Shown: positions 2,642 to 59,470, counted from the stretch's first letter. The stretch is DNA of 64,000 nt from Chthoniobacterales bacterium (GCA_049282095.1 JBAPTI010000016.1:11295-75294); one strand, 5' to 3'. Program-made: numbers and translations. The notes: generated by a model from the letters alone, not told the origin.

Positions 2642-2746
2642 GTTAAAAAGTTAAAAAGTTGAAACGTTAAAAAGAGCCGGCCAAGTCAGCATCCAACTCC
2701 TTCCGACACTCTTTTCATCCTTCATAATTCATCCTTCATCCTTTCC
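2642..2746. repeat. Chimeric AT-rich word spacer inside the nuo operon (family-A arm + family-C arm)
   Basis: 2642-2674 is GTTAAAAAGTTAAAAAGTTGAAACGTTAAAAAG (8-nt period). 2714-2746 is TTCATCCTTCATAATTCATCCTTCATCCTTTCC (7-nt period). The two halves are not complementary to each other. Confidence 0.8.
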
Positions 2747-2753
2747 GCCCGCC

Positions 2754-3257
2754 ATGCTCCTCACCGCCTTCTGGTTCTTCGCCTCGCTGATGATCCTCTT
2801 CGGATTGAGCGTCGTGCTGCTCCGTAATCCCGTCTCCTGCGCGATGTCCCTGGTGATGTGCTTCATCAGCCTTGCGGCACTCTTCGTGACCCTCGACGCC
2901 ACGTTCATCGGCATCATCCAGGTGCTGGTCTACGCGGGCGCGGTGATGGTCCTCTTCCTCTTTATCATCATGCTTCTCGATCTCCGCACGGAGAAGTCGC
3001 GCCGCCTAAACTTCGGCGCAACCCTGGGCGGGACGCTGGTGGTGGCGGCATTCCTCTCGATCCTCGTTCAGGTCATCAACGCTGACCCCGCCCTCTCCAA
3101 GGCGCTTCCGGCCCTTCCCCCCGGGATGCCCACGGATGTGAAGATGATCGGTTTCACCCTCTTCCATTCGTTCGCCCTTCCCTTCGAGGTGGTTGGCGTC
3201 CTTCTTCTCTCGGCGACCGTCGGGGTGATCGTCCTCAGCCGCAAGTCTCTCCGATAA
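2754..3257 (+). CDS. nuoJ: NADH-quinone oxidoreductase subunit J
   Basis: 167-aa hydrophobic ORF in the J position with ...IQVLVYAGAVMVLFLFIIML... (ND6/NuoJ-like). Confidence 0.88.
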   Translation: MLLTAFWFFASLMILFGLSVVLLRNPVSCAMSLVMCFISLAALFVTLDATFIGIIQVLVYAGAVMVLFLFIIMLLDLRTEKSRRLNFGATLGGTLVVAAFLSILVQVINADPALSKALPALPPGMPTDVKMIGFTLFHSFALPFEVVGVLLLSATVGVIVLSRKSLR

Positions 3258-3275
3258 ACGAACAGCTTCCACGCC

Positions 3276-3593
3276 ATGCCGACACTCGCCAACTACCTGA
3301 TCGCCAGCGGCCTCCTCTTCGCCATCGGACTTGGCGGCGTGATGCTCCGCCGCAGCATCATCATCATCTTCATGAGCCTTGAGTTGATGCTCAGCGCCGC
3401 GAATCTCTCACTGGTCGCCTTCTCGCGCTACGGGCTTGTCTCGGGCCACCAAAACTTTGACGCGCAGGTGCTCGTCTTCTTCATCATCACCGTCGCCGCC
3501 GCCGAGGTGGCCGTCGGCCTTGCGATCATCGTCTCCCTCTACCGTGCCCGCCAGACGACCCATGTCGAGGATCTCGATACACTGAAATTCTGA
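3276..3593 (+). CDS. nuoK: NADH-quinone oxidoreductase subunit K
   Basis: 105-aa, 3-TM protein with [17 protein letters not shown] and [13 protein letters not shown] (ND4L/NuoK). Confidence 0.92.
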
Positions 3594-3625
3594 CGCCCGC
3601 CACGATCGACCCAACGTTTCCGCCG

Positions 3626-5446: not shown

Positions 5447-5464
5447 CACCATCCCTTTCCTGAC

Positions 5465-13553: not shown

Positions 13554-13560
13554 TTTAACT

Positions 13561-13709
13561 CACAGGGATGAAGGGGATGAAGGAGATAGAGAAGAAAATC
13601 TCAAATGGAATAGAACAGGAACAGAACAGAGCATAGTAAGTCTGCACACAAATTCTCCTCATCCATTCTTTGCCCAAAGACCATCCCTTCCATCCCCTTC
13701 ATCCCTGTG
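13561..13709. repeat. Family-C hairpin (GGGATGAAG words) between the two paralogs
   Basis: Left arm CACAGGGATGAAGGGGATGAAGG (13561-13583). Right arm CCTTCCATCCCCTTCATCCCTGTG (13686-13709). They are complementary except for one extra C, with a ~100-nt AT-rich loop. Confidence 0.9.
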
Positions 13710-14876
13710 AAATCGCATTTCCCTCCCGTCTTTGTTGGTTGCGGTTTTGCCGCGAAGTATCCCGAAGGGGGCGGCAATTTCTCCGTGCCTCTGCAGTACC
13801 TGACGGGGCTGAAGCGGATGGGGTGTCGAGGGGTCTGGTTGGAGGTACTTCAGGAGAGTGGTGACCCGGAGAAGGATGCCCGGTGTGTCCGGAGTTTTCG
13901 CCGCAGGATGGCCTTCTACGGTCTCGAATATTGCCTGCTACTCCGCCCCCCGCAGATTGGGGGAGGTGCCGAGGAGCATCACCCGGAAGGGATGCGGGCC
14001 TTCGGAATGCCGCTCAAGGAACTCCGAGAACTCGCTCCCCATTCCTTCCTGCTGAACCTCAGCTACTCAATCAAGCCGCCGCTCACCAATCTCTTCGGCC
14101 GCCGCCTGCTCTGTAGCCTCGATCCGACCGAGGTCCTCTACTGGATGGATCAGATGGAGATGGGGCAGTCCTGCCATGACGAGTTCTGGTCGATCGGACT
14201 CTGCATGGATGCGATCGATCCGCGTCTCCCGAAGCCCATCGTCTCCTGGAAGAGTTACTTTCCCCTCGTCGACACGGAACTCCTCAAGCCTCAGCCTCAG
14301 CCGCGCCCGACCGGAAAGCCGCGCTTCACGACGATTGGCCAGTGGTATTGGGACGGGAACATTATGATCGGCGGTGAGTGGCGCGATTACTCGAAGCAGG
14401 CCGCCTTCGCCCCCTACATGGATCTGCCGAAACGGGTGCCAGAGGCGGTCTTTGAGCTTGCGATGAATCTTAATCCCGATGACCCCGAGCGCCGGCGCCT
14501 CCGCTCGCTGGGATGGAAGGTGGCCACCCCGCATGCCCTGACCAGCACGCCTGAGGCCTACTACCGCTATCTGGCGGGGGCCACGGCCGAGTTCACGGCG
14601 GTGAAGCTTGAGGCGATCATGGGAAGTGGCTGGCTGAGTGATCGCGCTGCGGCCTTTCTGGCGCTCGGTCGACCCGTGGTCACCGAACCGACCGGTGCCG
14701 AGCGCTTCCTCCCGAAGGATTCGGGAATGCTCTTTGCCTCCAACCTTGAGGAGGCGGTTGAGGCCTCGCGCCGTGTGCTGAAGGATTGGCCCGCACTCGC
14801 AAAGGCCGCCCGTGTCACGGCGATGGAGTGCTTCGACTCGGTGCGTAATCTGCGCCTGATGCTAGGCAATTCCTAG
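13707..14876 (+). CDS. GT-B/CgeB-like putative glycosyltransferase, paralog 2 (start uncertain, GTG inside the hairpin arm)
   Basis: 389 aa. The C-terminal GWLSDRAAAFLALGRPVVTEPTG...MLFASNLEEAVEA aligns with paralog 1. The N-terminal ..YLTGLKRMGC.. aligns with ..YIVGLQRLGH... Confidence 0.5.
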   Translation: MKSHFPPVFVGCGFAAKYPEGGGNFSVPLQYLTGLKRMGCRGVWLEVLQESGDPEKDARCVRSFRRRMAFYGLEYCLLLRPPQIGGGAEEHHPEGMRAFGMPLKELRELAPHSFLLNLSYSIKPPLTNLFGRRLLCSLDPTEVLYWMDQMEMGQSCHDEFWSIGLCMDAIDPRLPKPIVSWKSYFPLVDTELLKPQPQPRPTGKPRFTTIGQWYWDGNIMIGGEWRDYSKQAAFAPYMDLPKRVPEAVFELAMNLNPDDPERRRLRSLGWKVATPHALTSTPEAYYRYLAGATAEFTAVKLEAIMGSGWLSDRAAAFLALGRPVVTEPTGAERFLPKDSGMLFASNLEEAVEASRRVLKDWPALAKAARVTAMECFDSVRNLRLMLGNS

Positions 14877-14878
14877 GC

Positions 14879-15931
14879 TCATGATCCTGCCGGGAGTGTG
14901 CTCCCCTCGATCCAAGTCGGTTCGATGAGCATGGCTCTCGGTGAGGTGGAGAGGGCTGTCTCGCCCGCATGGATCATCTGCACCAGCAGGTCTACCGCGG
15001 CGGCTCCCGTTCGGTCGTTGTGCTGGTCGACACCCGCCCAGTCACTGCGCTCGGGACGTGATTCAAGCTGCACGAGGGCCGTTGTCTCGGGCACCTTTAC
15101 GCGGAGTGCTTTCAGCCATTCCTCCACGACATGGTAAAGCGTCAGGATCGAGTCCGGACGATGACGTTCCCACCATGAGATGAATTCCGGGGAGGGTTTC
15201 GAGTCACCACCGCAGTGATAGAACGGAGGAACCCGGTCGCGTGCGGGGAGTTCACGCTGGGCGATCAGAAACCCCGCGGTGAAGCGTCCTTGCACGAGTT
15301 CATCGATGTCGTGTTCAAGGACCAGTGCGGGACGCCGTCGACCGGAGGCAAGGATCCGTGAGAGGGCGAGCTGGGCGACCGCATGATGATCGGCACAGGC
15401 AAACGGTAGTCGGGGATCCTCCGTTCTCACCCCCGTGACGACGCATGGCATGGCGGTCCAGAGCGGGGCCAGGGTGGAGGGGAGGCGGTTACTCTTCATG
15501 AGGCCGGTGAGGATGCACCCCCTCAGCCCCCTGGCCTGCAGGATCCGCAGAAGTCCCTTACCATCGAGGGAGGTGGCCGGTTCGTTGATCTCATCGAGGA
15601 TGTAACCGAGGGCCCCGGCGCGGGACCTGCATCCCCTCACGTAGGCAGGGATGGTCGGGTGGGAGCGGAAGGCGGAGGGATCCTCGTTGAGGTTCAGCAG
15701 GGCGATGGTCGCCCGTTCCCCCCTCTGTTCCCCGATCCTGAGCTGGGACATCAGGTGTGCGACGACGGCATTGCGCCGGTACCCGATCCGTTTGGCCGCC
15801 TTCTCCACGCGTTGCCGGGTGGCCTTGGGGATCCGCGGATCATGACTCAGTGCCAGCGAGACCGCTGATTTGGTCAGTCCCGTGAGGGCAGCGATGTCGC
15901 TTAGGGAGGGGGTCTTTCGGGGTGTTTTCAT
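14879..15931 (-). CDS. LacI-family transcriptional regulator (likely arabinose-operon repressor)
   Basis: N-terminal HTH SLSDIAALTGLTKSAVSLALSHDPRIPKATRQRVEKAAKRIGYRRN plus a periplasmic-binding-protein-like sugar domain. Divergent from araB. Confidence 0.88.
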   Translation of the reverse strand: MKTPRKTPSLSDIAALTGLTKSAVSLALSHDPRIPKATRQRVEKAAKRIGYRRNAVVAHLMSQLRIGEQRGERATIALLNLNEDPSAFRSHPTIPAYVRGCRSRAGALGYILDEINEPATSLDGKGLLRILQARGLRGCILTGLMKSNRLPSTLAPLWTAMPCVVTGVRTEDPRLPFACADHHAVAQLALSRILASGRRRPALVLEHDIDELVQGRFTAGFLIAQRELPARDRVPPFYHCGGDSKPSPEFISWWERHRPDSILTLYHVVEEWLKALRVKVPETTALVQLESRPERSDWAGVDQHNDRTGAAAVDLLVQMIHAGETALSTSPRAMLIEPTWIEGSTLPAGS

Positions 15932-20079: not shown

Positions 20080-21114
20080 TTAAACGCTCCGGCAATAGCT
20101 GACGCCCGCCTCGGCCAGCCAGGCATCTAGGACGGCGGCGTTGCCGAGCGAATCCTCCCAGTCCATTTCCGGGGTTTGCTGTCTCCCCTCGGCAACGGCA
20201 CGGGCCACCGCATCGATCTCGAATCCGTAGAGATCGTGGTCGGGAGTTCCGCTCGGCAGAGTCCGCGTCACACCCCCCTTGTGATTGCGGATCCGGATCT
20301 CGGCTTCGCCGGGATAAACGCCCCAGGGGCAGTTCAGGGTGATCGTTCCGAGTTCCCCTTCCAGACGGACTTCATTGGTTCCATGGAGTTGAATTCCGCT
20401 TTGGATCATGGCGATGAGTCCACCGGGGAATCGCAGGATCGCGGCGGCGGTGAGATCGGTCTTCTCTCCGGGATCCAGTCTGGCAAATCCACGGACCTCC
20501 TTCGGTTCGGCATGGCGTTTCCCCAAGACTTCGCCGGCCACCATCCGGGCCATTGAGACCCCGTAGCATCCGATATCCAGGATCGACCCGCCTCCCAGAG
20601 CTCGGGCGACCAAACGATGACGCGGATCATATTCCCCGAGATGGTAACTGAAGGTTGCATGGATCATGCGGATCGGTCCGATCTCGTCGGAGCGGATCAG
20701 CTTGCGCAGGGTTTCCGTCTGCGGATGGCAGCGGTACATGAAGGCTTCCATGAAGAAGACTCCGTGCTTTCGCGCCGCGCCGATCATCTCTTCCACCTCG
20801 GCACGGTTCATGCCTGCGGGTTTCTCACAGAGGATGTGCTTGCCAGCCTCCGCGCAACGGACGGCCCACTCCCGGTGCATCGGATGGGGAGGCGCGATGT
20901 AGACAGCGTCGACTTCAGGGTTTTCCAGAAGTGCCGCATAGTCTCCATGGGCGTGGGGGACACTGTGCTGTCCGGCAAACTTGGCGGCATCCTCCGAGGT
21001 TCGGCTTGCCACCGCCGCGAGTTGACCGGTCGAGGATTTGGAGAGTGCCTCCGCGAAGCGATGGGCGATCTTTCCGGTGCTGAGAATGCCCCAGCGGATT
21101 TTGGTGGCGGTCAT
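20080..21114 (-). CDS. Gfo/Idh/MocA-family NAD(P)-dependent oxidoreductase
   Basis: 344 aa with an N-terminal Rossmann region KIRWGILSTGKIAHRF, EKPAGMN, and a C-terminal alpha/beta domain. Confidence 0.85.
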   Translation of the reverse strand: MTATKIRWGILSTGKIAHRFAEALSKSSTGQLAAVASRTSEDAAKFAGQHSVPHAHGDYAALLENPEVDAVYIAPPHPMHREWAVRCAEAGKHILCEKPAGMNRAEVEEMIGAARKHGVFFMEAFMYRCHPQTETLRKLIRSDEIGPIRMIHATFSYHLGEYDPRHRLVARALGGGSILDIGCYGVSMARMVAGEVLGKRHAEPKEVRGFARLDPGEKTDLTAAAILRFPGGLIAMIQSGIQLHGTNEVRLEGELGTITLNCPWGVYPGEAEIRIRNHKGGVTRTLPSGTPDHDLYGFEIDAVARAVAEGRQQTPEMDWEDSLGNAAVLDAWLAEAGVSYCRSV

Positions 21115-21170
21115 CGGGAAAGGGAAAAGGGGGAATGAAAAATGAAGAGGAACTTCTTGTGGGGGGGATT
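21115..21170. repeat. Solo family-B arm (GGAATGAAAAATGAAGAGG...TGGGGGGG)
   Basis: Matches the reverse complement of the right arms at 27552-27587 and 28794-28829 (GAATGAAAAATGAAGA..GGGG). No partner arm is nearby. Confidence 0.6.
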
Positions 21171-27521: not shown

Positions 27522-27587
27522 AAAATGCCAAAACAGGGGATTTCCGCATCTCCCCACTTCTTCATTTTTCATTCTGCCTTTTGCCTT
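27501..27587. repeat. Family-B hairpin, copy 1 (GAAAAAT words), upstream of thiH
   Basis: Left arm GAAATGAAGAAGGAAAAATGAAAAATGCCAAAACAGGGG, 12-nt loop, right arm CCCCACTTCTTCATTTTTCATTCTGCCTTTTGCC. The arms are imperfectly complementary. Confidence 0.85.
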
Positions 27588-27598
27588 AGTATTCATCC

Positions 27599-28789: not shown

Positions 28790-28829
28790 TTTCCCCCCTC
28801 TTCATTTTTCATTCTACATTTTGCCTTTC
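28721..28829. repeat. Family-B hairpin, copy 2, between thiH and thiS
   Basis: Left arm AGAAATGATGAAGGAAAAATGAAAAATGAAAAAACAGGG, 34-nt loop, right arm CCCCCCTCTTCATTTTTCATTCTACATTTTGCCTTTC. The arms are near-identical to copy 1 and in the same orientation. Confidence 0.88.
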
Positions 28830-28835
28830 TGCCCC

Positions 28836-29036: not shown

Positions 29037-29043
29037 GAGAAAA

Positions 29044-31741: not shown

Positions 31742-31800
31742 ATGAATTCTACTCCATCCTTTCGTGACTGTCAGACAACAACCTGTTACCTCTTCTCTCT

Positions 31801-33426: not shown

Positions 33427-33428
33427 CC

Positions 33429-35862: not shown

Positions 35863-35872
35863 AAATGCTGAA

Positions 35873-35890
35873 GCCGCTCCGAAGAGCGGC
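35873..35890 (+). terminator. Stem-loop after the cassette (GCCGCTC-CGAA-GAGCGGC); weak terminator or processing site
   Basis: 7-bp GC stem with a 4-nt CGAA loop, 11 nt after the stop. No U-tract follows. Confidence 0.3.
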
Positions 35891-35973
35891 CTCGTAACTC
35901 CTTCCACAACATGGTGGATGAGATGGGTAAAACCTACTTCAGGACTCTTTTGAGTCAAGAATCAATCTAGCCC

Positions 35974-39111: not shown

Positions 39112-39126
39112 AGCTGATTCTACAGA

Positions 39127-39225
39127 GGATTGGAATTTTGGATGCAGCGCCAGGCGTGCGAGGGAGGGCGTAGTAATCCTACGCCGACCGATCAACAACA
39201 CCGCGCGGCGCCAAAATCCCAATCC
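39127..39225. terminator. Nested hairpin between convergent hsdR and PIN-PhoH genes (probable bidirectional terminator)
   Basis: Outer arms GGATTGGAATTTTGG (39127-39141) and CCAAAATCCCAATCC (39211-39225) match at 14/15 positions. The inner hairpin is GGCGTAG-TAATC-CTACGCC (39167-39185). Confidence 0.45.
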
Positions 39226-40765: not shown

Positions 40766-40798
40766 GGTTCGGGTCAGGTGTTAAGGTTGGGGTGACTT

Positions 40799-41076
40799 AG
40801 AGACTGTCTGAAAACTCGGGAGAGCCGCGTTGGCGGGGATTTTTCCGTTGGCCAAGAAGGGAGGACGGCGGCAATACCCGTGCGGTCTTGTTCCGTCCGA
40901 TCCGACACTGGCCAAAGGGAAAAGCCACCCAACCCTTCGGGCAAGAGCAAGAGAAGCTGTCTGGCTGCGTTCCCTGCTCGGTCAAAGACCACTGCGGGGA
41001 TTCTCCCTCGCAGGTGCCTGACCATCCAGACACCCCTTGCTCTCGCGCGGCATTCCCCATTTTTCAGACAGTCTCT
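40799..41076. repeat. 278-bp unit closed by a perfect 16-bp inverted repeat (MITE-like element or structured RNA)
   Basis: AGAGACTGTCTGAAAA (40799-40814) is the exact reverse complement of TTTTCAGACAGTCTCT (41061-41076). The interior is GC-rich with no credible ORF. Confidence 0.5.
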
Positions 41077-41371
41077 TAAAGGAAGCGCTAGGGCTTCCCC
41101 AAACGAACCCCTCCAAGGGAGAGGCCGAAAGGGGAACACGGCAGTTGAATCAGTAAGCCGTGAAGACAAGGGGCCGGCACCGGTGAGCCCTACCGGAGTT
41201 TCAAACCGCACCGAATCGCAGTGGCGACGGGTTCGAGTCAAGATGAGCGGATATTCACAGGTTATTCACAGACTCCACAACAGAAAAAACGCGCCTTTTT
41301 CGACATGGATCGCAAGTGGCTGGAGGAAAGGGGACAAGGAACCAAGTGAAAGTGAAAGGAGGGCAAGCCGT

Positions 41372-41846: not shown

Positions 41847-41971
41847 GAATCACGCTACGGCCGGAGATGCGCCGCGCAAGGAAGAGAGGTCTACGCATTA
41901 CCCGTATCTCTTCACGCTGCCTGCTTACCTTTAGCCTTCAGTCTTCGGACTTCAGCCTTTAGTCTCCCCCG

Positions 41972-43273
41972 ATGCATTCTTTCCGCTATGTCGATGGCTC
42001 GCTCAAGTGCGAGGGTGTGGATCTCGATTCCGTGGCTTCCGAGGTGGGGACTCCCGCCTATGTCTATTCGGCCGAGACGATCAGGAACAATTTCCGCCGA
42101 CTCGATGCGGCGCTGGCGCCGCTCGGCGACCGGATGATCTGCTACGCCATGAAGGCGAACAGCAACCTCTCCGTGCTGAACCTGCTCGCAAAGGAAGGTT
42201 CGGGATTCGACATCGTCTCGGGCGGCGAACTCTTCCGGGTCCTCAAGGCGGGGGGCCGCGCCGACCGGTGCACCTTTGCCGGCGTCGGCAAGACGGCGGG
42301 GGATATCGACTTCGCCCTGCGCCAGGGGATCTACAGCTTCAATGTCGAGTCGGAGGAGGAACTCGAATGCATCAACGAGGTGGCCGGCAAGGCGGGCCTC
42401 GTGGCTCCGATCGCCGTCCGCGTGAATCCCGACGTCGACGCCCCGACCCACAAGTACATCTCCACGGGCAAGAGCAAGAACAAGTTCGGCATCGGCCTCG
42501 ACCGCGCCGCCGCAGTCTACGAACGCGCCGCATCGCTCCCGCACATCAGGATCCAGGGTCTCCAGACCCACATCGGCTCCCAGATCCTGAAGGCACCTCC
42601 CTTCGCGGAGGCCATCCGCAAGCTTACTCCGCTTGTCCTCGAGTTGAAGGCGAAGCACGGGCTGGAGTTCTTCAGCGTCGGAGGCGGTGTGGGCATCGTC
42701 TACCGCGGCGCCCTTGCCAGCGGTGACGCTGCCTGGTGGAAGGGAAGCGGCGAGGAGGGCTTGGAACGCCTTGCCCCCGAGGTCTATGCCGCCGAGGTGA
42801 TCGATCCGCTGAAGGCTCTCGGGCTTCGCATACTCTTCGAGCCCGGCCGCTTCATCGTCGGCAACGCCGGGGTCCTCCTCACGTCCGTGCTCTACCGCAA
42901 GTCCACCCCGACCAAGAATTTCGTGATCGTCGACGCCGGCATGAACGACCTGATCCGTCCGGCCCTCTACGAGGGGCATCATGAGATCGAGCCGCTGCGC
43001 CAGCCCAAGGATGCCACGCTCGAGAAGGTCGATGTCGTCGGTCCGGTCTGCGAGAGCGGTGATTTCTTCGCACAGGACCGCGAGATTCCCGTGCTCGCTC
43101 CCGGCGACCGCATCGCGCTGATGAGCTCCGGTGCCTACGGCTTCGTCATGGCCTCGACCTACAACGCCCGTCCGCTTCTTCCCGAAGTGCTGGTGGAGGG
43201 AGACAAGGCCACGGTCGTCCGCGATCGCCAGACCTGGGATGATCTCATCCGTGGGGAAAAGGTGCCTGGGTAA
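41972..43273 (+). CDS. lysA: Diaminopimelate decarboxylase
   Basis: 433 aa with the PLP-lysine motif CYAMKANSN, GFDIVSGGEL, and VVGPVCESGD. Confidence 0.93.
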   Translation: MHSFRYVDGSLKCEGVDLDSVASEVGTPAYVYSAETIRNNFRRLDAALAPLGDRMICYAMKANSNLSVLNLLAKEGSGFDIVSGGELFRVLKAGGRADRCTFAGVGKTAGDIDFALRQGIYSFNVESEEELECINEVAGKAGLVAPIAVRVNPDVDAPTHKYISTGKSKNKFGIGLDRAAAVYERAASLPHIRIQGLQTHIGSQILKAPPFAEAIRKLTPLVLELKAKHGLEFFSVGGGVGIVYRGALASGDAAWWKGSGEEGLERLAPEVYAAEVIDPLKALGLRILFEPGRFIVGNAGVLLTSVLYRKSTPTKNFVIVDAGMNDLIRPALYEGHHEIEPLRQPKDATLEKVDVVGPVCESGDFFAQDREIPVLAPGDRIALMSSGAYGFVMASTYNARPLLPEVLVEGDKATVVRDRQTWDDLIRGEKVPG

Positions 43274-43303
43274 GGGTAGAAAAAAGAGAGCGGAAATATT
43301 TTA

Positions 43304-43323
43304 ACCCGCCTGAAACAGCGGGT
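43304..43323. terminator. Hairpin between convergent lysA and the metallophosphoesterase gene
   Basis: ACCCGC-CTGAAACA-GCGGGT, with AT-rich flanks on both sides. Confidence 0.4.
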
Positions 43324-43327
43324 AGTT

Positions 43328-44281
43328 CTATTTACCGGTCCGGAGAATATGCACCGTGATCTCGGGCGGGCAATGGAAGCGGGCCGCCACGCCGGCCGAT
43401 CCGCTGCCGCGTGAGGTGTATCCGATCATTCCGCCTTCACGCCAGGATCCGGCGAGGTGCTCCCTGCGGCATCCTGGGGCATTGCGGTAGATGGGGAAGC
43501 CTCCCGGGGCGCAGATCTGGCCACCATGCGTGTGGCCGCTGAGGTGGAGGTTGTAACCGAGCCTGGCCGCCTCCCGATAGGTCTCGGGCGAATGGGAAAG
43601 CAGGATGGCGGGCTCCTGCTCGGGGATGGTCGCACTCGCCAGTTTCAGATCGTGTGTGCGGAAGAAATGGGGATCGTCGACTCCGGAGATCCAGAGACGC
43701 TTTCCCCCGCGCTCGATGGAGACAGATTCGTTCAGCAGGAAGGGAAGTCCCGCCTCCTCGAGGGGGGCGACCTTTTCCAGGAAGTCGTGGTTGCCAAGGA
43801 TGGCGAAGCGTACCGGATGAAGTGACGGGAGAAATCGGAGCATCTCGGCCAGAGACCGGTCGAACGGTGCGCGCACATCGTTGTGGTAGTCGCCGGTCAG
43901 GACAACTGCGTCGTGCGGGGTGGAGGCCATCCTTTCCCCGATCCGTTCCATCACGCGTGTGTCGAGATCGCAATGGAGGTCGGCGAGTTGGAGCAGGCGG
44001 AATCCCTCAAAGGGAGAGGGTAGCCCCGGTATCACCACTTCGTGTTCCACTACCTGCAGGTCGAGGATGTTCCGGAGACCGCGTTCACGCAGCCCGCAGG
44101 CCGCGACAACTGCGGCAACGCAGGCGTTCACGGAGAAAAAACGCTCCAGCGCAAAGAGCCCAAGGCCCTGAGCCACCTTCCTCCGGACAAGGCGGTCCTG
44201 AAGATGGAGGCGGCGGAGAGTCCGCTCCTCACCCAGTCGCTCCCGGATCCGATCGGGGATGGTGTTGGTCAAAGAAGGCAT
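43328..44281 (-). CDS. Membrane-associated metallophosphoesterase (YaeI/YkuE-like)
   Basis: LLQLADLHCD, VLTGDY, GNHD, GHTHGG. Start set to ATG 44281. The 35 extra N-terminal codons of the track ORF (to 44386) are encoded by repeat words. Confidence 0.8.
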   Translation of the reverse strand: MPSLTNTIPDRIRERLGEERTLRRLHLQDRLVRRKVAQGLGLFALERFFSVNACVAAVVAACGLRERGLRNILDLQVVEHEVVIPGLPSPFEGFRLLQLADLHCDLDTRVMERIGERMASTPHDAVVLTGDYHNDVRAPFDRSLAEMLRFLPSLHPVRFAILGNHDFLEKVAPLEEAGLPFLLNESVSIERGGKRLWISGVDDPHFFRTHDLKLASATIPEQEPAILLSHSPETYREAARLGYNLHLSGHTHGGQICAPGGFPIYRNAPGCRREHLAGSWREGGMIGYTSRGSGSAGVAARFHCPPEITVHILRTGK

Positions 44282-44313
44282 CGAAAGAAGATAAGGCAGA
44301 GCCGCGAAATTGC

Positions 44314-44410
44314 TAATCAGGAACCGGAGGGGGATGAACAACGACGAAGGCAAAAGGCAAAAGGAAGAATGAAAAAGGCTATCCAATCATCTTTCTGAGT
44401 TCCTGATTCA
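44314..44410. repeat. Composite element: D-type 10-bp inverted repeat enclosing a solo family-B arm
   Basis: AATCAGGAAC (44315-44324) pairs with GTTCCTGATT (44399-44408). The interior GGCAAAAGGCAAAAGGAAGAATGAAAAAGG (44349-44378) matches the reverse complement of family-B right arms. Confidence 0.65.
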
Positions 44411-44426
44411 ACTGTTGGCTCTCTAC

Positions 44427-44496
44427 AAAAAAGGCAGCCCGGTCGGGTTTCCGAGTCCTTCCCCCGAGATCTCGAAATTTTTGACGACCGGGCTGC
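44427..44496 (-). terminator. Strong minus-strand intrinsic terminator upstream of the metallophosphoesterase gene (attenuator or sRNA end)
   Basis: Perfect 12-bp arms GCAGCCCGGTCG (44434-44445) and CGACCGGGCTGC (44485-44496). The inner stem is TTTCGAG/CTCGGAAA. On the minus strand the hairpin is followed by CTTTTTTG (A-run at 44427-44432 on the plus strand). Confidence 0.55.
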
Positions 44497-44586
44497 AACC
44501 ACAAACCGGGTTGTATCAAGCACAGCCCGTGCCAACTCCCAATATACCCTCCGAAGCTGATGGAACGGGCGGTGTGTGATTTTTAA

Positions 44587-46830
<2,244 letters not shown>

Positions 46831-46843
46831 TTCTGAAACTCTC

Positions 46844-48103
46844 ATGTCATCGCTTTCGACCGCCGATCTTTACCGTGACTACGTGATGCCGACCTACGGC
46901 CGGTTCGATCTGGCCCTAGCCCGGGGGGAGGGATCGAGCGTGTGGGATGAGGAGGGGAAGGAATACCTCGATTTCGGCGCGGGGATCGCTGTCTGCTCGC
47001 TCGGCCACAGCCACCCGAAGCTCTCCAAGGCGATCGCCGAGCAGGCCGCCCGCTTGGTTCACACCTCCAATCTCTACCTCACGCGGCCTCAGGGTGAACT
47101 CGCGAAGCTTGTTGTCGATCTGGTCGGTCTGGGCGGGAAGGTCTTTTTCTGCAACAGCGGCGCCGAGGCGAACGAAGGGCTCTACAAGCTGGCGCGGAAA
47201 TTCGGCGCTCCCACCGGTCGCCACGAGATCATCACGTTCACCAATTCCTTCCATGGCAGGACGCTCGGCGGCATCAGCGCCACCGGCCAGGAGAAGGTGA
47301 AGGCCGGATTTGCCCCCTTGGTGGAGGGATTCGTCCATGTTCCGTTCAATGACCTTGCCGCCGTGGAGGCCGCCATCACCCCCAAGACCGCCGCGATCCT
47401 GCTCGAGCCCGTCCAGGGCGAGGGAGGGATTAATCCCGCGACTCCCGAATTTCTCAAAGGTGTCCGCGCCCTCTGCGACAGGCACAATCTGCTGCTTCTC
47501 TTCGACGAGGTGCAGTGCGGCTTCGGGCGGACGGGTGACTGGTGCGCCTGGAGGACAATCGTCCCCTCCGGAGTGGAGCCCGATGCCGTGAGTTGGGCCA
47601 AGGGGATCGCAAACGGATTTCCGCTCGGGGCTTTCTGGGCCGGAACACGGAGCACTGGACCTGATGCCGATGGCAACGAAAGGGGGCCTCTCTGTGACCT
47701 GCTCGGTCCCGGCACTCATGGCACGACCTACGGGGGCAATCCCCTCGCCGCGACCGCAGGACTCACGGTTCTCGAGGCGATCGGTGAGGAGGGATTGCTC
47801 AAGAATGCCAGGGAACTTGGCAATCACCTCATGCGGTCGCTGGAGGCGATGAAGCTGCCGGCTATCCGGCTTGTACGCGGCGTTGGCCTGATGATCGGAA
47901 TCGAACTGAACGATCTCCCCGCCTCATTCGGCGGGGAGGGGTTCCCATCCATCCGCGCCACCAAGGAGCTGATGAAGGCGGGGCTTTTCGTGATTCCCTC
48001 CGGAGAGAGGACGATCCGGTTGCTCCCTCCGCTTAATATCACTAAGGCCGAGGCCGACAAGGCACTGGGGATCCTGAAGAAGGTTCTCTCTGGTGGTTCC
48101 TGA
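46844..48103 (+). CDS. argD: Acetylornithine aminotransferase (class III PLP aminotransferase)
   Basis: 419 aa with GAGIAVCSLGHSHP, DEVQCGFGRTG, and WAKGIANGFPLG (PLP lysine region). Confidence 0.88.
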   Translation: MSSLSTADLYRDYVMPTYGRFDLALARGEGSSVWDEEGKEYLDFGAGIAVCSLGHSHPKLSKAIAEQAARLVHTSNLYLTRPQGELAKLVVDLVGLGGKVFFCNSGAEANEGLYKLARKFGAPTGRHEIITFTNSFHGRTLGGISATGQEKVKAGFAPLVEGFVHVPFNDLAAVEAAITPKTAAILLEPVQGEGGINPATPEFLKGVRALCDRHNLLLLFDEVQCGFGRTGDWCAWRTIVPSGVEPDAVSWAKGIANGFPLGAFWAGTRSTGPDADGNERGPLCDLLGPGTHGTTYGGNPLAATAGLTVLEAIGEEGLLKNARELGNHLMRSLEAMKLPAIRLVRGVGLMIGIELNDLPASFGGEGFPSIRATKELMKAGLFVIPSGERTIRLLPPLNITKAEADKALGILKKVLSGGS

Positions 48104-48111
48104 AGATTTTC

Positions 48112-48271
48112 TTAATCAGGAAATCAAGAAATCAGGAAAAAAAAGGAGACTGATTGGTGAGACTGTTGCTCGTGGATCTGCCGCGAGATACCCCGTCTCC
48201 CTTTTTGCTCTCTTCCGATTCCTGAGTTCCACATTCATCATCTCTGTGTTTCCGCGCCTTTGCGGAAAAAT
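48112..48271. repeat. Family-D hairpin, copy 2, plus conserved 47-nt tail, downstream of argD
   Basis: Left arm TTAATCAGGAAATCAAGAAATCAGGAAAAAAAAGGAGAC (48112-48150). Right arm GTCTCCCTTTTTGCTCTCTTCCGATTCCTGAGTTCC (48195-48230). The tail ATCTCTGTGTTTCCGCGCCTTTGCGGAAA matches 761-790. Confidence 0.85.
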
Positions 48272-48303
48272 CAACAATCTTCCTACGCGCTCAGACGGCT
48301 TTC

Positions 48304-49158
48304 TTAAGCAGCTTTCTTCTTCGACTTGGAGGATTTCTGAGCGGCGGGTGCCGCTGCTGGTGACGCTGAAGGCGTGGGTGCGGGATTCTTGCTCTCCATG
48401 GCAAGCAGTTCGGAAACGGTCACGAACTTGAAGCCCTTTGCGAGGAGGGCGTCGAAGGTTGCGGGCATCGCCTCGATGGTGCCGGGGTGGATGTCATGGG
48501 CGAGGATGATGGATCCCGGTTGTGTTCCGGCGAGGATGCGTTGCGTGATGACTTGGGGGCCGGGTCGCTTCCAGTCAAAGGGATCGACAGACCAGAGGAT
48601 GACCTTCATGCCGTATTCCTTCTCGATCGCCTTGTTGAGACGCGGGTTGGTGGCGCCGTAAGGAGGGCGCATGAGGGTGACCGGCTTGCCGGTGGTCTTG
48701 GTGATCGTCGCGGAGGTGTCGGCCAGTTCGTGCTGGAGGCCGCCTTCACCCAGCTTGTTCAGCGCCTTGTGATCCCAGCTGTGGTTGGCGATCTCGTGTC
48801 CCTCGGCGAGGGCGCGCGCGATGATCTCGGGATGTTCCTGAGCAAGCTGGCCGAGGACGAAGAAGGTGGCCTTGATGTTGCGCTGCTTGAGCATGTCGAG
48901 CAGGCGCGGGGTCAGCACGGCGCTCGGCCCGTCGTCGAAGGTCATGGCTATATAGGGAGCATCGACGCGGATCGCGGTGTAGCAGGTGCGCTCTCCGGCT
49001 TGGGCTGGAAGCTCCTGCGGTGTCTGCATCGCCATGGCCTGAGGAGAGGCTGTAGGTGCGACTTCCTCGGCGGTGGCGACGGACTGCATCGCAGTGAGCA
49101 TGACGGCGGCGCAGGCAAGTGCGCCTGCTGAAAATCTGGAAAGGGGTTTCATTGGCAT
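48304..49158 (-). CDS. Secreted polysaccharide deacetylase (CE4/NodB domain)
   Basis: NodB motifs MTFDDGP, HSWDH, and LAHD. Signal peptide MPMKPLSRFSAGALACAAVMLTAMQSVATA from ATG 49158. Ala/Pro/Lys-rich tail. Confidence 0.85.
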   Translation of the reverse strand: MPMKPLSRFSAGALACAAVMLTAMQSVATAEEVAPTASPQAMAMQTPQELPAQAGERTCYTAIRVDAPYIAMTFDDGPSAVLTPRLLDMLKQRNIKATFFVLGQLAQEHPEIIARALAEGHEIANHSWDHKALNKLGEGGLQHELADTSATITKTTGKPVTLMRPPYGATNPRLNKAIEKEYGMKVILWSVDPFDWKRPGPQVITQRILAGTQPGSIILAHDIHPGTIEAMPATFDALLAKGFKFVTVSELLAMESKNPAPTPSASPAAAPAAQKSSKSKKKAA

Positions 49159-49237
49159 GATCCTGAACAACCTGACACAAACCGCGAAAGTTGCACGCCC
49201 GGATCTTCCGCTGAGTGGCATCCAAGCGATCGGGCGA

Positions 49238-50140
49238 TCAGACAACCGGGATCAAGGCCTTGGCCCTGGGGGTCAGTAGGCTCAGGAACTCCAGGAGGGA
49301 TGGCTTGTCGGGAATCGGTCTGCGGGTGACCGCACCCATGGGCCGCCAGATCCTCTCTGCATCGATCGGCCTCGAGACAAGGCGTCCCTGTTTGATTTCC
49401 TGACGCACGGAGGTCTCGGGAATGATGGAGATGGCCTGTTCGGCCTCCACAGCAGCCTTCACGGTTTCGATATTCTCGAGTTCGGCGACCAGCGTGACCT
49501 TCACGCCCGCCTGACGCAGCACTTTGTCGAGATGCTGGCGGGTCGGAATATCGGGTGTGAGGCCGACGAAGCGCTCTCCGTCGAGTTGCTGAAGCGAGAT
49601 GGGGCGTTTGCCTCCAAGGGGATGCTTCGGGGGCATCACGAGCACGAGTTTCTCCTGCCAGCAGGTGATGGCACGCAGGCCGGGTCGCGCCTTCGGATAG
49701 GCGACCAGTCCGAGATCCGCCCTGCCATCGCCGACGGCATCGTAGATCTCCTCGGCCTTGCGGTAGTCGACGGTGACCTCGACGCCGGGATGGTTCTTGC
49801 GGAACTGCCGCAGCAGCGGCGGGAGGTCGTGGAGCGCGATGCTGATGACGCTGGCCACGCGGAGCTTGCCTCCGAGTTTGCCACGCGCGACACGGAAGCG
49901 CGAGCCGAGGCTGTCGTAGCGGGCCAGGATGTCGCGGCAGACCTCCAGGTAGATGCGACCCTCGGGCGTGAGGGTGAAGTGGTTGTTGCTCCGGTCGACG
50001 AGCGGGACGCCGAAGCGCTTCTCCACCGCGCGGATCTGCTGGCTCACCGCGCTCTGGGTGATGCCGCTCGCCTCGGCGGCGCGGGAAAAGTTCCCCGTGT
50101 CGCAGAGATCGCAGAAGACCTTGAAGCCCTCGATATGCAT
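49238..50140 (-). CDS. LysR-family transcriptional regulator
   Basis: From ATG 50140: MHIEGFKVFCDLCDTGNFSRAAEASGITQSAVSQQIRAVEKRFG (LysR wHTH) plus a substrate-binding domain. The track N-extension was rejected. Confidence 0.88.
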   Translation of the reverse strand: MHIEGFKVFCDLCDTGNFSRAAEASGITQSAVSQQIRAVEKRFGVPLVDRSNNHFTLTPEGRIYLEVCRDILARYDSLGSRFRVARGKLGGKLRVASVISIALHDLPPLLRQFRKNHPGVEVTVDYRKAEEIYDAVGDGRADLGLVAYPKARPGLRAITCWQEKLVLVMPPKHPLGGKRPISLQQLDGERFVGLTPDIPTRQHLDKVLRQAGVKVTLVAELENIETVKAAVEAEQAISIIPETSVRQEIKQGRLVSRPIDAERIWRPMGAVTRRPIPDKPSLLEFLSLLTPRAKALIPVV

Positions 50141-55464: not shown

Positions 55465-55516
55465 GAAGGGTATCTCCCTTCTAACGTTGTAACTTTTCCA
55501 CTTTTTAACGCTTACG
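55465..55516 (+). terminator. Hairpin GAAGGG-TATCT-CCCTTC followed by a T-rich solo family-A arm
   Basis: Lies 13 nt after the E2 stop. The downstream CTAACGTTGTAACTTTTCCACTTTTTAACGC resembles the right arms of the family-A hairpins. Confidence 0.4.
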
Positions 55517-55579
55517 GCTTCACGCCCGAGCGGTGAAATATTTCGCAACTTTTGAATCGGGGCGGTGTTTCCCCGAGTG

Positions 55580-57442: not shown

Positions 57443-57466
57443 TATCGGCTCATTTGATTCATTCAA

Positions 57467-57505
57467 AGCGCCATGCTGGAAACGGCATGGCGCTTTTTGT
57501 TTTTT
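57467..57505 (+). terminator. Canonical intrinsic terminator of the secreted-protein cluster
   Basis: AGCGCCATGC-TGGAAACG-GCATGGCGCT forms a perfect 10-bp stem, followed by TTTTGTTTTTT. Confidence 0.88.
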
Positions 57506-57790
57506 AACCCGGAATTTGCATTGGGAATTTCTGAGAACATAGGAGGCCGAGTTAAAAGAGTTAAAAAGGTGAAATGTTACAACGTGGATCCGGGAGAGCC
57601 CTGACTCGGCATTCGAAAGGGGGAAGTCAGGGAAAGTGCCCTCAAATATGCCTTCATGAGTTCCATTCGGCCTCTGACTTCAGCCCTTTGTAACCTTTTA
57701 ACGGTGTAACGCTTTTAACCTTTTAGGGACTCACCATCCGGGTGAACCGCACAAACTGTCAACGCCGCTCTATTGCGCAATCTGGTTTAA
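57504..57790 (+). repeat. ~290-bp dispersed repeat, copy 1 (contains a family-A hairpin)
   Basis: Shares ordered blocks with 59102-59392: TTAACCC[G/A]GAATTTGCATT[G/A]GGAA, GTTAAAAGAGTTA, ACTCACCATCCGGGTGAA, GCTCTATTGC..AATC.GG.TTAA. Internal arms at 57551-57590 and 57687-57725. Confidence 0.85.
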
Positions 57791-57831
57791 GAGGCTTCCT
57801 CCAGAAAGGGCGCGAAGGATGGTAGCCACGA

Positions 57832-58059
57832 TCAACCCTGAGGCTTGATCACGTTCTTGCCGCCGCCGGTCTCCTTGGGAAGCGTGATGGTTTGGACTTT
57901 CTGCTTCGGGATCCCTTTGTGGAGCATCTTGGTGTAGGGTCCCCAGACGCACTGCGGGAAGTAGAGGTCGCGCCTGTTCTCGATCGTGGTGCATCCAGCC
58001 GTGAAGAGCGGGATCAGCAGGATGGCGAGAAGATGGCGTGGGGAGAGCACCTGATTCAT
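57832..58059 (-). CDS. Small lipoprotein (lipobox LFTAGC)
   Basis: 75 aa from ATG 58059: MNQVLSPRHLLAILLIPLFTAGCTTIENRR.... Divergent from lgt. Confidence 0.6.
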   Translation of the reverse strand: MNQVLSPRHLLAILLIPLFTAGCTTIENRRDLYFPQCVWGPYTKMLHKGIPKQKVQTITLPKETGGGKNVIKPQG

Positions 58060-58140
58060 GGGAGCGGAGCATAATCCGAAGGCCTTCCGTGATGTCAAAG
58101 AAATTGCCCCGGCTTCGCTTCTTCGCGAGGATTACCGGCG

Positions 58141-59073
58141 ATGCTTCTGGCCTACTACGTTCATGACCTGAGCCCCTTTCTCGTGCAGTTCGGGGGATTC
58201 GGCCTGCGTTGGTACGGGCTTTCTTATCTGGCGGGGTTCCTTGTCGGGATCCTGCTTTACCGGCAACTGGCCCGGCGCGGTTACTCCGACCTGCGCCCCG
58301 ATCAGGTCGCCGATTTTATCACCATGGGGGCTCTCTTCGGCATCCTGCTCGGAGGGAGGTTGGGATACATGCTCTTTTACGATCCGGAGCGTTTTTTCCA
58401 TGACCCGCTTGTTTTTTTTCGAGTCTGGGAAGGGGGGATGGCCAGTCACGGAGGAATCATCGGCCTCACGATCTTCACGTTCTGGTATGCAAGGAAGCAT
58501 CGGCTCTCCTTCCGCAACCTGGGTGATAACCTCGTCGTGGTTGCTCCGGTCGGACTCTTCTTCGGGCGCTGTGCGAACTTCGTGAACGGAGAACTCTACG
58601 GACGGATCACCGATGTGTTCTGGGCCGTGCAGTTTCCCAAGGAGATCTTTCTCTATACCCCGGATCACCTGGATCGCCTGCTCGCCAAGACCTCCGCCAT
58701 CGATCCCGCGTTCGCCTCTCCGGATGCCGTGATCGCAGGAGTCGCCGCCTCTCCGGCCCTGCGCGACCTGCTCGCCGTGGAAATCTCACCACGTTATCCC
58801 TCGCAGTTGGTGGAGGCGGGGCTGGAGGGGGCTGTTCTCTTCCTTCTGCTCTGGACACTCAGGACGAGGGTGCGGCTTGCCGACGGGGTGCTCTGCGGCA
58901 TCTTCTTCATCGTTTACGCACTCCTGCGCATTTTGGGCGAGTGCTTCCGGGAGCCGGACGCTCCGCTGACAGGGGGGCTCACCCGCGGCCAGTTCCTCTC
59001 CCTCTTCATGATCGTGATCGGTCTGCTCTTCCTTCTCTCCGCCCGCCTCAATCCCCGCGTTCGTCCCGACTAG
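58141..59073 (+). CDS. lgt: Prolipoprotein diacylglyceryl transferase
   Basis: 310 aa, polytopic. FGGFGLRWYGLSYLAGF, WEGGMASHGGIIG, GRCANFVNGELYGR, YPSQLVE are Lgt signatures. Confidence 0.93.
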   Translation: MLLAYYVHDLSPFLVQFGGFGLRWYGLSYLAGFLVGILLYRQLARRGYSDLRPDQVADFITMGALFGILLGGRLGYMLFYDPERFFHDPLVFFRVWEGGMASHGGIIGLTIFTFWYARKHRLSFRNLGDNLVVVAPVGLFFGRCANFVNGELYGRITDVFWAVQFPKEIFLYTPDHLDRLLAKTSAIDPAFASPDAVIAGVAASPALRDLLAVEISPRYPSQLVEAGLEGAVLFLLLWTLRTRVRLADGVLCGIFFIVYALLRILGECFREPDAPLTGGLTRGQFLSLFMIVIGLLFLLSARLNPRVRPD

Positions 59074-59101
59074 AGCGGTACCTTTCAACCCTTCAACGGG
59101 T

Positions 59102-59470
59102 TTAACCCAGAATTTGCATTAGGAACTGGAATCCGAGGAAAAGGAATGGGTTAAAAGAGTTAGAATCGTTAAAAGGTTACAAGGTAGATCCAAGGGTGTT
59201 GCCCAAAAACTCGAATAGATTTCAGAGAGAGTACCGGAAACGGATGCGGGGGGGCGGAGGAATCAAACTACTTGCTTCGATCCTTTGTAACTTTCTAACG
59301 CTTTCACTTTTTTAACTCGGGGCAAGAACTCACCATCCGGGTGAAGCATCCGATTCTGTTAACCCTGCTCTATTGCAAAATCCGGGTTTAACCATCCGAC
59401 GGCTCAAAATCCGGGTAAACCATCCAGACCTTTCGTCGCCTCCCTATCGCATAATCTGGGTTAAAGCCGA
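59102..59470 (+). repeat. ~290-bp dispersed repeat, copy 2, with its terminal ~30-nt motif triplicated
   Basis: Collinear with copy 1 (arms at 59149-59190 and 59279-59317). The terminal motif occurs three times: CTATTGCAAAATCCGGGTTTAACCATCC, CTCAAAATCCGGGTAAACCATCC, CTATCGCATAATCTGGGTTAAAGCC. Confidence 0.8.

Follow-up and report, generated by a model that had tools for sequence, protein, structure and literature searches.

Many intergenic spacers in a 64,000-nucleotide stretch of DNA from a Chthoniobacterales bacterium (GCA_049282095.1, JBAPTI010000016.1:11295-75294; hereafter the window) were found to be built from arrays of 2-9 tandem words of 7-9 nt. Such an array stood singly at a gene end or, more often, was joined by a second, complementary and inverted array, the two spanning the whole spacer as a foldback. 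At least six unrelated word families, most of them AT-rich, were distinguished, and in all pairs a purine-rich arm was followed by a loop and then by a pyrimidine-rich arm. It was proposed that these elements are lineage-specific foldback repeats acting at the DNA level, in part simple-sequence repeats and in part similar to MITEs (miniature inverted-repeat transposable elements), which would be reshaped by slippage and replacement and filtered by their gene-end context. We rate this explanation slightly above an even chance of being correct.

Judged from its sequence, the source is a freshwater member of the Verrucomicrobiota belonging to the Chthoniobacterales ("Spartobacteria") lineage; the placement was made by LigA-based searches of genome and metagenome collections, in which the nearest matches were labelled Chthoniobacterales or "Spartobacteria". 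The G+C content of the window was 61.5 %. LigA identity to the window was 96 % for contig L002 (assembly JBEIJN01), 93 % for L003 (CANKJN01), 88 % for L017 (JBIIGI01) and 79-84 % for about ten further contigs; L005 came from JAPJNA01. The elements are not an assembly artefact, because positions 42374-49921 were matched at 100 % identity by an independent Logan contig and the same elements were present in independent metagenome-assembled genomes.

The word-array pattern is real and well above chance. The non-coding DNA of the window (7.8 kb) contained 13 arrays (period 6-10, at least 2.4 copies), when 0.33 ± 0.57 were expected from 100 dinucleotide-preserving shuffles with a shuffle maximum of 2. 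The coding DNA (55.8 kb), separated from the non-coding DNA by a simple GC3-based gene map, contained 6 arrays, several of them at mis-called gene ends; the arrays were almost confined to non-coding DNA. Tandem Repeats Finder (TRF) reported arrays of period 7-9 with copy numbers of 2.4-4.9 at 2642, 2714, 13565, 13681, 27502, 28723, 28801, 29042, 29089, 41936, 44347, 46688, 46804, 48114, 57549/57685 and 59149. Inverted pairs were returned by a repeat search at 13560/13683, 27502/27563, 28721/28801, 29042/29088, 46683/46804 and 57551/57688, and complementary inverted pairs occupied at least eight spacers of the window. Where a spacer had both a purine-rich and a pyrimidine-rich array, the arms were of the same family in 8 of 10 cases by our own curated count, with about 21 % expected (binomial P ~1e-4). 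RNA folding of the paired elements gave z of about -2 to -10 on both strands, except for 57551 (about -1.3 on either strand), and no folding was predicted for the chimeric spacer at 2640, in which a family A array is joined to a family C array.

The first-pass annotation of the window had described AT-rich spacers made of short tandem words arranged as inverted repeats. Both the arrays and the pairs were confirmed, and TRF arrays were present at essentially all of the elements it had named, those at 743 and 44315/44399 being single-word stems rather than arrays. AT-richness is not universal, because a GC-rich word family (GCGCAGAGG / CCTCTGCGC) occurs at 763-800 and 48238-48266. Some right arms had to be relocated, from 48195 to about 48214-48233 in the 48112 element and from 27552 and 28794 to starts at 27558 and 28801. 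The array at 21115, assigned to family B, was a G-rich variant of that family, and the CTTCAGT array at 41936 had been missed. Solo arrays lay at 2642, 41936 and 55481, and a chimeric A+C spacer at 2640. The following elements were catalogued; the ThiH-like, ThiS, ArgD-like, Lgt and U32 peptidase genes beside them were checked with Pfam.

700-800, no strand assigned: D-type array split by a GC-rich module of ~34 nt (reverse complement of CCGTAACGGCTGCGAAGCAACGGCCAGGCCAGCC), followed by an E-type arm (CTCTGCGTCTCCGCGCCTCTGCGGG).
2642-2674, plus strand: purine-rich family A array found by TRF, GTTAAAAA x4, a solo arm 14 nt past the nuoI stop and the left half of the non-complementary A+C spacer.
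2714-2743, plus strand: pyrimidine-rich family C array, TTCATCC x4, 11 nt upstream of the nuoJ start.
13560-13710, plus strand: family C foldback, arms TCACAGGGATGAAGGGGATGAAGGAGAT / ATCCCTTCCATCCCCTTCATCCCTGTGA, 89 % complementary, loop of 95 nt, fold z = -10; L003 has almost the same arms at another locus, and L024 has variant arms.
21118-21152, minus strand: family B-like array, a pyrimidine-rich leader abutting the start codon of the gene at 20080-21114 (minus strand).
27502-27590, plus strand: family B foldback upstream of a gene for a radical-SAM/BATS (ThiH-like) protein (27599-28789).
28721-28830, plus strand: family B foldback between the ThiH-like gene and thiS (28836-29036); its arms (~40 nt) are ~90 % identical by eye to those at 27502, and the loops differ.
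29042-29119, plus strand: family C-like foldback located between thiS and the next gene, which encodes a U32 peptidase, with AAGTATG/ATGAAG words facing TTCATAA; at the orthologous place L022 has a non-complementary E+D pair.
41936-41965, plus strand: solo array of a pyrimidine-rich 7-nt word (CTTCAGT x4.3), 7 nt before the start of a gene encoding an Orn/DAP/Arg decarboxylase.
44315-44409, minus strand: family B array (44347-44379) within a single-word D stem AATCAGGAAC / GTTCCTGATT; the array is pyrimidine-rich on the coding strand of a metallophosphoesterase gene (called start 44281).
46683-46833, plus strand: family D foldback filling the ligA-argD spacer, arms (AATCAGGA)x3 / (TTCCTGAT)x3, 90 % complementary; the left arm sits within the last 12 codons of ligA, and argD (46844-48103) encodes a class-III aminotransferase (ArgD-like).
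48112-48266, plus strand: family D foldback in the convergent argD / polysaccharide-deacetylase spacer; left arm 48112-48139, degenerate right arm 48214-48233, inner hairpin GGAGAC...GTCTCC between an A-run and a T-run in the loop, and a solo GC-rich E-type arm (48238-48266) after the foldback.
55481-55518, plus strand: pyrimidine-rich family A solo arm upstream of the open reading frame (ORF) at 55565.
57503-57793, no strand assigned: family A composite of ~291 bp directly after a canonical terminator, consisting of a terminal inverted repeat (TIR) TTTAACCCGGAATTTGCA, purine arm (57549-57589), loop, pyrimidine arm (57685-57725), block ACTCACCATCCGGGTGAAC and reverse-complement TIR.
59101-59391, no strand assigned: second family A composite of ~291 bp, immediately downstream of lgt (58141-59073); an extra solo copy of the terminal repeat lies beside it at 59444-59465, and the gene order here differs from that of relatives.

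The polarity of the elements was uniform. When the reverse complement of each array was sought within 250 nt, it was located downstream for ~19 purine-rich or mixed arrays and upstream for ~17 pyrimidine-rich arrays, no case being reversed, and a control with the array reversed and left uncomplemented never scored above 20. Further, all 23 arrays within 35 nt of a start codon were rich in pyrimidines on the coding strand, two of these leader calls resting on imprecise starts, and the arrays within 35 nt of a stop codon were purine-rich (15) or mixed (3) and never pyrimidine-rich. Three calls that rested on an ORF mis-called to start inside an array were set aside from these counts, and the contigs with database gene calls agreed with the result. 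The arms lay no more than 15 nt past a stop and 8-33 nt ahead of a start, solo pyrimidine-rich arrays lay 7-20 nt upstream of start codons, and most genes had no array.

This polarity matches the host's translation start regions, which are themselves rich in pyrimidines. The lineage does not use Shine-Dalgarno (SD) sites: an SD-like motif at -20 to -4 was detected in 7 of 79 confidently called genes, and Verrucomicrobiales have been described as using SD sites little or lacking them (PMC10798248). The 40 nt upstream of starts were C/U-rich and G-poor, with 61 % C at -2. Individual gene starts (e.g., 885, 2098, 2754, 3276, 15992, 41972 and 50227) showed a marked preference for C at -2 and had C or G at -1, and the start context is Kozak-like, unlike the A-rich context described for Bacteroidia. 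Since normal leaders are SD-less and C/U-rich, the pyrimidine-rich arrays represent an exaggerated form of normal leader composition, and on the proposed mechanism a foldback would have to show its pyrimidine-rich arm to a downstream start. An inverted repeat is identical on both strands, and therefore a purine-to-pyrimidine foldback fits co-directional, divergent and convergent spacers, one polarity suiting all four gene arrangements. The opposite polarity would violate the order of pyrimidine before start and purine after stop everywhere.

The position of the pyrimidine-rich arrays raised the question of whether they are protein or ribosome platforms, that is, translational enhancers or standby sites (e.g., for S1 or a Csp-like protein), or whether the words are operators, the purine-rich partners being incidental. 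Solo arrays just upstream of starts in a genome without SD sites would suit such a role; the leader array of the decarboxylase gene was kept in 11 of 11 relatives with its period of 7 conserved, and the same idea has been proposed for TAACTGA repeats (PMC4679880). However, orthologous sites did not keep the same word, and the mutually unrelated families numbered at least six, which makes a sequence-specific binder unlikely. Most genes are without an array, the arrays are dispensable in relatives, and the purine-rich arrays after stops in convergent spacers are left unexplained, hence we regard platforms as highly improbable. The earlier suggestion of binding arrays for one protein also became unlikely, because orthologous spacers swap between unrelated words.

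A gene-end capping system of an SD-independent bacterium was considered as well, in which the pyrimidine array would be a ribosome-loading leader and the complementary purine array would follow the preceding stop; such a system seems quite doubtful. Read-through transcripts would then pair the arms and hide the leader, when transcripts starting in the loop would leave it free, a mechanism that is doubtful to the same degree. If capping were true, each cistron would be translated only from its own promoter, and the words could drift freely while the arms matched, which would explain turnover with retained architecture.

Words turned over at fixed positions. Among more than 20 relatives, orthologous spacers kept arrays, and the words, the copy numbers and whole families changed or vanished. 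The ligA-argD spacer was compared in 13 relatives. The window and L002 had (AATCAGGA)3 / (TTCCTGAT)3, L004, L022, L023 and L025 had ACTCAGGA / TCCTGAGT, and L005, L046 and L026 had CTCATGAA on the left and TCCTGAG on the right. Arms of the GGGATGAAG type were found in L003, L024 and L051, and in L027 and L028 the left arm was interrupted by another module. This turnover included a complementary change on both arms (AATCAGGA/TCCTGATT versus ACTCAGGA/TCCTGAGT). It was also observed that ligA of the window and L002 had lost its stop, which is the TAA of the element terminus TTAATATGG in relatives, the ORF running on for 12 codons across the purine-rich array (NQEIKKREV*; 46683-46725).

The leader of the decarboxylase gene (start 41972) had a pyrimidine-rich 7-nt array in all 11 relatives, ending 7-20 nt before the ATG and comprising 3.3-5.7 copies of words that included CTTCAGT, TTCATTT, TTTCAGG, CTTTGCA, CCTTTCG, CTTCAGC, AGCCTTC and CACCTTT. 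Upstream of this array, a hairpin at 41880-41925 was conserved in L002, L003 and L017, with an apparently compensatory change in L003 (GAAGAGAGGT...ACCCGTATCTCTTC versus GAAGAGGGGT...ACCCCTATCTC); it may be a regulatory leader structure. Another non-coding block, upstream of ligA (44425-44640; AAAAAAGGCAGCCCGGTCGG...CGACCGGGCTGCAACCACAAACC...GCTCAAGGATCGCCAC), contained a long GC stem and was conserved in L002, L003, L017, L005, L004 and L022-L028, the surrounding spacer being variable. Probably it represents a structured RNA or a regulatory leader not described before; the block had no Rfam match, and an E-value search gave only a chance microRNA hit.

Other spacers were less constant. The argD 3' spacer had D words in the window, GCGCAGGG x8.5 in L002 (~94 % identical), and x2-3 in L026 as well as L046; L022 and L024 had nothing there. 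Between nuoI and nuoJ, the same A+C' pair was found in L055 and L057 with differing copy numbers, L056 had an unrelated 41-nt spacer without arrays despite an identical NuoI protein, and L052 and L058 had short spacers without arrays. Copy number was thus polymorphic between close relatives (L055 and L057; L005 x3 and L046 x2; L002 x8.5 and L026 x2-3), and single-base changes were concerted across all words of one arm. Array density ranged from 0 per 20 kb (L056, L058) to ~20 per 64 kb in the window. From these absences and this range of density, the arrays are considered dispensable, lineage-specific and fast-evolving.

Arrays of one family on both sides of thiH, argD and lgt had been pointed out in the first-pass annotation. 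They are present in the window, though not conserved in relatives, as shown by the argD 3' spacer; bracketing of argD by one family was limited to the window and L027/L028 among about six lineages. A 5'/3' panhandle, in which the same family on both sides of a gene gives complementary mRNA ends, was rejected because bracketing is not conserved.

The foldbacks could instead be functional RNA stem-loops, such as intercistronic insulators, leader-masking or 3'-end protecting structures, RNase III sites or weak bidirectional terminators, and selection for pairing would then keep the arms complementary. The strong predicted stems (z -2 to -10), the short distances of the arms from stops and starts and the purine-to-pyrimidine polarity, as expected of terminator-like hairpins, are in line with this, as are the small hairpin flanked by an A-run and a T-run in the 48112 loop and the foldback kept in 11 of 13 completely covered ligA-argD spacers despite word change, including change on both arms. 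However, the arm mismatches in co-directional spacers, read on the sense strand, comprised 7 G.U and 12 A.C, that is, no sense-strand wobble excess as a sign of RNA-specific selection. The left-arm change of CAGGAA to CATGAA was uncompensated in L005, L046 and L026. In the divergent spacer of L063 (11077-11281), complementary arms lie upstream of different starts, at ~5 nt and ~45 nt, and if the promoters are between them, the arms are probably on different transcripts. The mismatch counts and this divergent spacer are two observations against the first-pass suggestion that the hairpins may insulate or stabilise single cistrons. Chimeric, non-pairing spacers persist within the nuo operon, in relatives elements are missing from orthologous spacers as well as from entire stretches of 20 kb, and no match of the terminator scans coincided with an element.

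A matrix of left against right arms across lineages showed that only the window subtype stood out, the others being interchangeable, and the apparently compensated change can be explained by a subfamily swap, because both subfamilies coexist in L027 and L028. Stepwise compensatory co-evolution of the arms was likewise considered; the evidence for it was weak, and replacement as a unit fitted better. Taken together, the sequence comparisons favour a DNA-level origin and maintenance of the inverted symmetry, with secondary RNA effects possible, and functional stem-loops as the cause are an unlikely but tenable explanation.

Ordinary intrinsic (Rho-independent) terminators would likewise be intergenic and of hairpin type, the right arms of families A and B are T-rich, and the inner hairpin of the 48112 element has T-rich tail flanks in a convergent spacer. 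Consensus scans for intrinsic terminators (12-31.9 kb and 44-60 kb), however, gave matches at or below the shuffle expectation and none within an element. The stems are long and AT-rich with loops of 15-105 nt, one array pair lies inside the nuo operon, and a number of right arms, in family C and the GC-rich E words, are rich in C. A textbook intrinsic terminator with a 14-bp stem, GAAA loop and T-run was observed at 57465-57506, immediately before the family A composite and outside the element, which indicates that canonical terminators are used in this lineage. The earlier statement that the elements are not simply intrinsic terminators therefore stands, and terminators are scarcely credible as an explanation. 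Matches to sigma-70 promoters in the loops were at the shuffle expectation; one 9/12 match (29067-29096) overlapped an element and was not significant. Across the whole window, Rfam 15 gave no match at the gathering threshold, and the tRNA scan found none.

Family A looked mobile; its arms sit in a composite of ~290 bp bounded by TIRs. Its order was a TIR (TTAAACCCGGATTTTGCA...), purine arm, loop of ~100 nt, pyrimidine arm, asymmetric block (ACTCACCATCCGGGTGAAC) and reverse-complement TIR. Five composites of 282-329 bp with the TTAAACCCGGATTTTGCA-type terminal repeat were found in both orientations, the conserved TIRs being 22 nt long. Family A alone has the features of a MITE, namely bounding TIRs, a length below 500 bp, no ORF and several copies. 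Non-orthologous composites were 59-75 % identical overall, compared with 91 % for the orthologous L002/L017 pair. Loop identity was 0.49-0.62 as against 0.56 for shuffles, and conserved loops or cassettes were rejected since the loops were no more alike than shuffles.

The composite was present or absent at four sites between genomes that are ~90-95 % identical. At 57503-57793 it was missing in L060, L061, L063 and L066, L060 retaining the same terminator sequence; at 59101-59391 the relatives instead had mgtC 40 nt after lgt; the site of the L002 composite at 14599-14927 corresponded to 18 nt in the window, and that of L002 7837 / L017 8487 to a 58-nt spacer. The termini were always T(T)TAA, consistent with TA or TTAA as the target, and in three cases the terminal TAA was the stop codon of the neighbouring gene. 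At the composite junction (59060-59075), lgt was 3-6 codons shorter than in relatives.

Arms of other families recurred at non-orthologous sites as well. The non-repeat terminus of the D arm, GTTCCATATTAA, was found in L022 at 559, 4301 and 12138; identical arms TCACAGGGATGAAGG...CCCTGTGA with non-repeat termini occurred at 13560 of the window and 12063 of L003, and C arms including TCACAGGG...CCCTGTGA were shared by window 13560 and the ligA 3' end of L003. Mobile or recombining interspersed families had been suggested at first pass together with a comparison of orthologous intergenic regions; that comparison, once run, revealed the presence/absence of family A and the word turnover, and the suggestion agrees with the ~290-bp element polymorphic at four sites and with the GTTCCATATTAA D arm at non-orthologous loci. 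In addition, a GC-rich module of ~34-40 nt (CCGTAACGGCTGCGAAGCAACGGCCRGGCYAGCC) lay inside purine-rich arrays or immediately 5' of them, each time on the purine strand, at five or more places (window 700-745; L024 6577-6620 and 4041; L027 6293-6335 and 7850-7900; L002 14660-14700). From its sequence and placement it looks like a nested insertion of a second repeat, similar to repetitive extragenic palindromes (REPs), that targets the arrays.

These recurrences bear on whether the arrays are a local mutational by-product, produced by in-place slippage under a composition constraint and by template switching (quasipalindrome correction or fold-back copying), without mobility or function. Such an origin would account for the copy-number differences between near-identical relatives (L055/L057, L005/L046, L002/L026), the concerted base changes across the words of an arm, the unrelated loops and the strand-symmetric mismatch spectrum, and in bacteria no repeat unit is more prone to slippage than the heptamer (Mrazek 2007, as summarised in PMC4679880). 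It does not account for identical arms with non-repeat termini at non-orthologous loci (TCACAGGGATGAAGG...CCCTGTGA; GTTCCATATTAA), for the 22-nt TIRs, asymmetric blocks, both orientations and polymorphic sites of the A composite, or for whole spacers replaced between genomes with identical flanking proteins. A purely local origin is decidedly unlikely on these grounds.

We proposed that DNA-level foldback repeats would spread or be replaced through transposition and/or ectopic recombination, and that replication slippage would grow, shrink and homogenise the arrays. The arms may stay alike because elements are replaced whole or because the template is switched inside the inverted repeat, and only the purine-to-pyrimidine polarity would survive turnover. 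Co-transcribed pairs would fold into long A.U-rich stem-loops between cistrons. Effects on mRNA stability, read-through or translation would then be a side effect or secondary use, not the cause of maintenance, and the transcribed elements may be passive or mildly functional stem-loops.

Several points weigh against this proposal. Between ligA and argD a foldback was present in 11 of the 13 relatives for which the spacer was completely covered, and the decarboxylase leader array was present in every relative examined; such retention hints at selection, i.e., at function. Leader composition alone cannot explain the polarity in convergent spacers, for which one has to suppose, indirectly, that a family proliferates only if the remaining spacer types tolerate it. 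At none of the four polymorphic A-composite sites was a clean target-site duplication readable, because the filled and empty sites differ on one flank, and no transposase or autonomous partner turned up, though no search aimed at transposases was made. Families B, C, D and E have no TIR outside the arrays and their loops are unrelated between copies, so for these families in-situ slippage with inverted duplication is possible. Further, the comparisons span ~0.5 Mb of related contigs rather than a whole genome, and many of the counted elements are orthologous and hence non-independent.

Two other features of the window were recorded. Its longest inverted repeat (40799-41076) has 31-nt arms (AGAGACTGTCTGAAAACTCGGGAGAGCCGCG and the reverse complement) 216 nt apart and no tandem words; it lies within the 650-nt spacer from a PhoH/PIN gene to the gene at 41415, most of which (~40798-41101) was unmatched in L017. 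A lower-GC island at 31700-39200 carries the genes of a type I restriction-modification system (HsdM, HsdS, a DUF3800 protein, a 159-aa ORF and HsdR) and is missing from L002 and L017, which are otherwise collinear.

Among known mobile elements, the Correia elements of Neisseria are 100-300 bp long, with TIRs of ~25 nt and no ORF, and lie in intergenic DNA near gene ends with strain-variable presence; they are co-transcribed and fold by pairing of their terminal repeats. The family A composite fits this general description. Correia copies are homologous throughout, whereas here the interior is near random, only the arms and TIRs are conserved, and in families B-E the arrays are the sole conserved part. 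The Foldback (FB) transposons of eukaryotes have long inverted arms of short tandem subrepeats, a variable centre and a variable subrepeat number. Unlike the present elements, they are eukaryotic, kilobase-scale and equipped with their own transposase; the likeness lies in the architecture only and is no sign of relatedness.

REPs and their mosaic elements (BIMEs) are abundant intergenic palindromes, often in inverted dimers, for which mRNA stabilisation and termination have been proposed (Di Nocera et al. 2013, PMC3733652). REPs, reported also in Verrucomicrobia (Opitutus terrae), are GC-rich stem-loops of 20-40 bp with a GTAG or CGTC tag and stems of 5-10 bp (PMC3733652). By inspection the present elements differ: their arms measure 25-40 nt and consist of mostly AT-rich tandem words, their loops span 15-105 nt, and GTAG/CGTC is absent. 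Long simple sequence repeats with units of 5-11 nt (Mrazek 2007, as cited in PMC4679880) share with them both the head-to-tail arrangement of such units and the copy-number polymorphism. Certain bacterial genomes are rich in tandem repeats of this unit size. A literature search on Chthoniobacter repeats found nothing specific. The first-pass remark that no description of such elements was known did not hold, given the inverted heptamer pairs in Xanthomonas (PMC4692102) and the heptamer arrays in Beggiatoaceae (PMC4679880).

The TAACTGA heptamer occurs as direct repeats in Beggiatoaceae, Cyanobacteria and Bacteroidetes (MacGregor 2015, PMC4679880), with arrays of 2-6 heptamers immediately before starts in SD-poor spacers and slippage as the proposed origin; the downstream genes have no functional theme, and the repeats are almost never inverted (one indirect repeat in 170 sets; PMC4679880). 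The heptamer arrays upstream of starts without SD sites are alike in both systems. TAACTGA is a single word, whereas in the present lineage inverted pairs dominate and the words differ between loci and relatives.

Of the described systems, the inverted GGGAATC heptamer pairs of Xanthomonas come closest. Intergenic 7-nt GGGAATC arrays, typically of ~4 copies and 89-93 % non-coding, were described in X. campestris and X. citri (Rehm et al. 2015, PMC4692102), with 70-75 cases per genome of two convergent arrays able to form a stem-loop; closely related species differ in the length and sequence of the arrays but usually retain pairs and singletons, and their function is unknown (PMC4692102). Two same-word arrays on opposite strands, convergent within one spacer and of the same polarity, are common to both systems. 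In Xanthomonas, however, one G-tract word was read via the G-quadruplex, which alone was considered in this only detailed study of inverted pairs, whereas here at least six unrelated families are mostly AT-rich and mostly lack a G3 tract, one family is embedded in a TIR-bounded element and the host is without SD sites. G-quadruplex potential, taken as at least four G3 tracts, was absent from GTTAAAAG, GAAAAAT, AATCAGGA and TTCATCC, which have no G3 tract; one was present only in GGGATGAAG and in the GCGCAGGG array of L002. The same architecture and polarity with many unrelated, mostly AT-rich words imply that quadruplex formation is not the common denominator.

The repeats offer testable hypotheses on how such arrays are tolerated or used, and hypervariable markers for strain typing of abundant freshwater Verrucomicrobiota. 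Even if selfish or neutral, they matter for annotation, since they lengthen or shorten ORFs at the end (ligA, lgt) and lie at points of rearrangement. The system is different from those known in its many word families, in a polarity tied to SD-less leaders, in the turnover of words at fixed positions, where word identity is free to change and position and polarity are not, and in one family that is bounded by TIRs.

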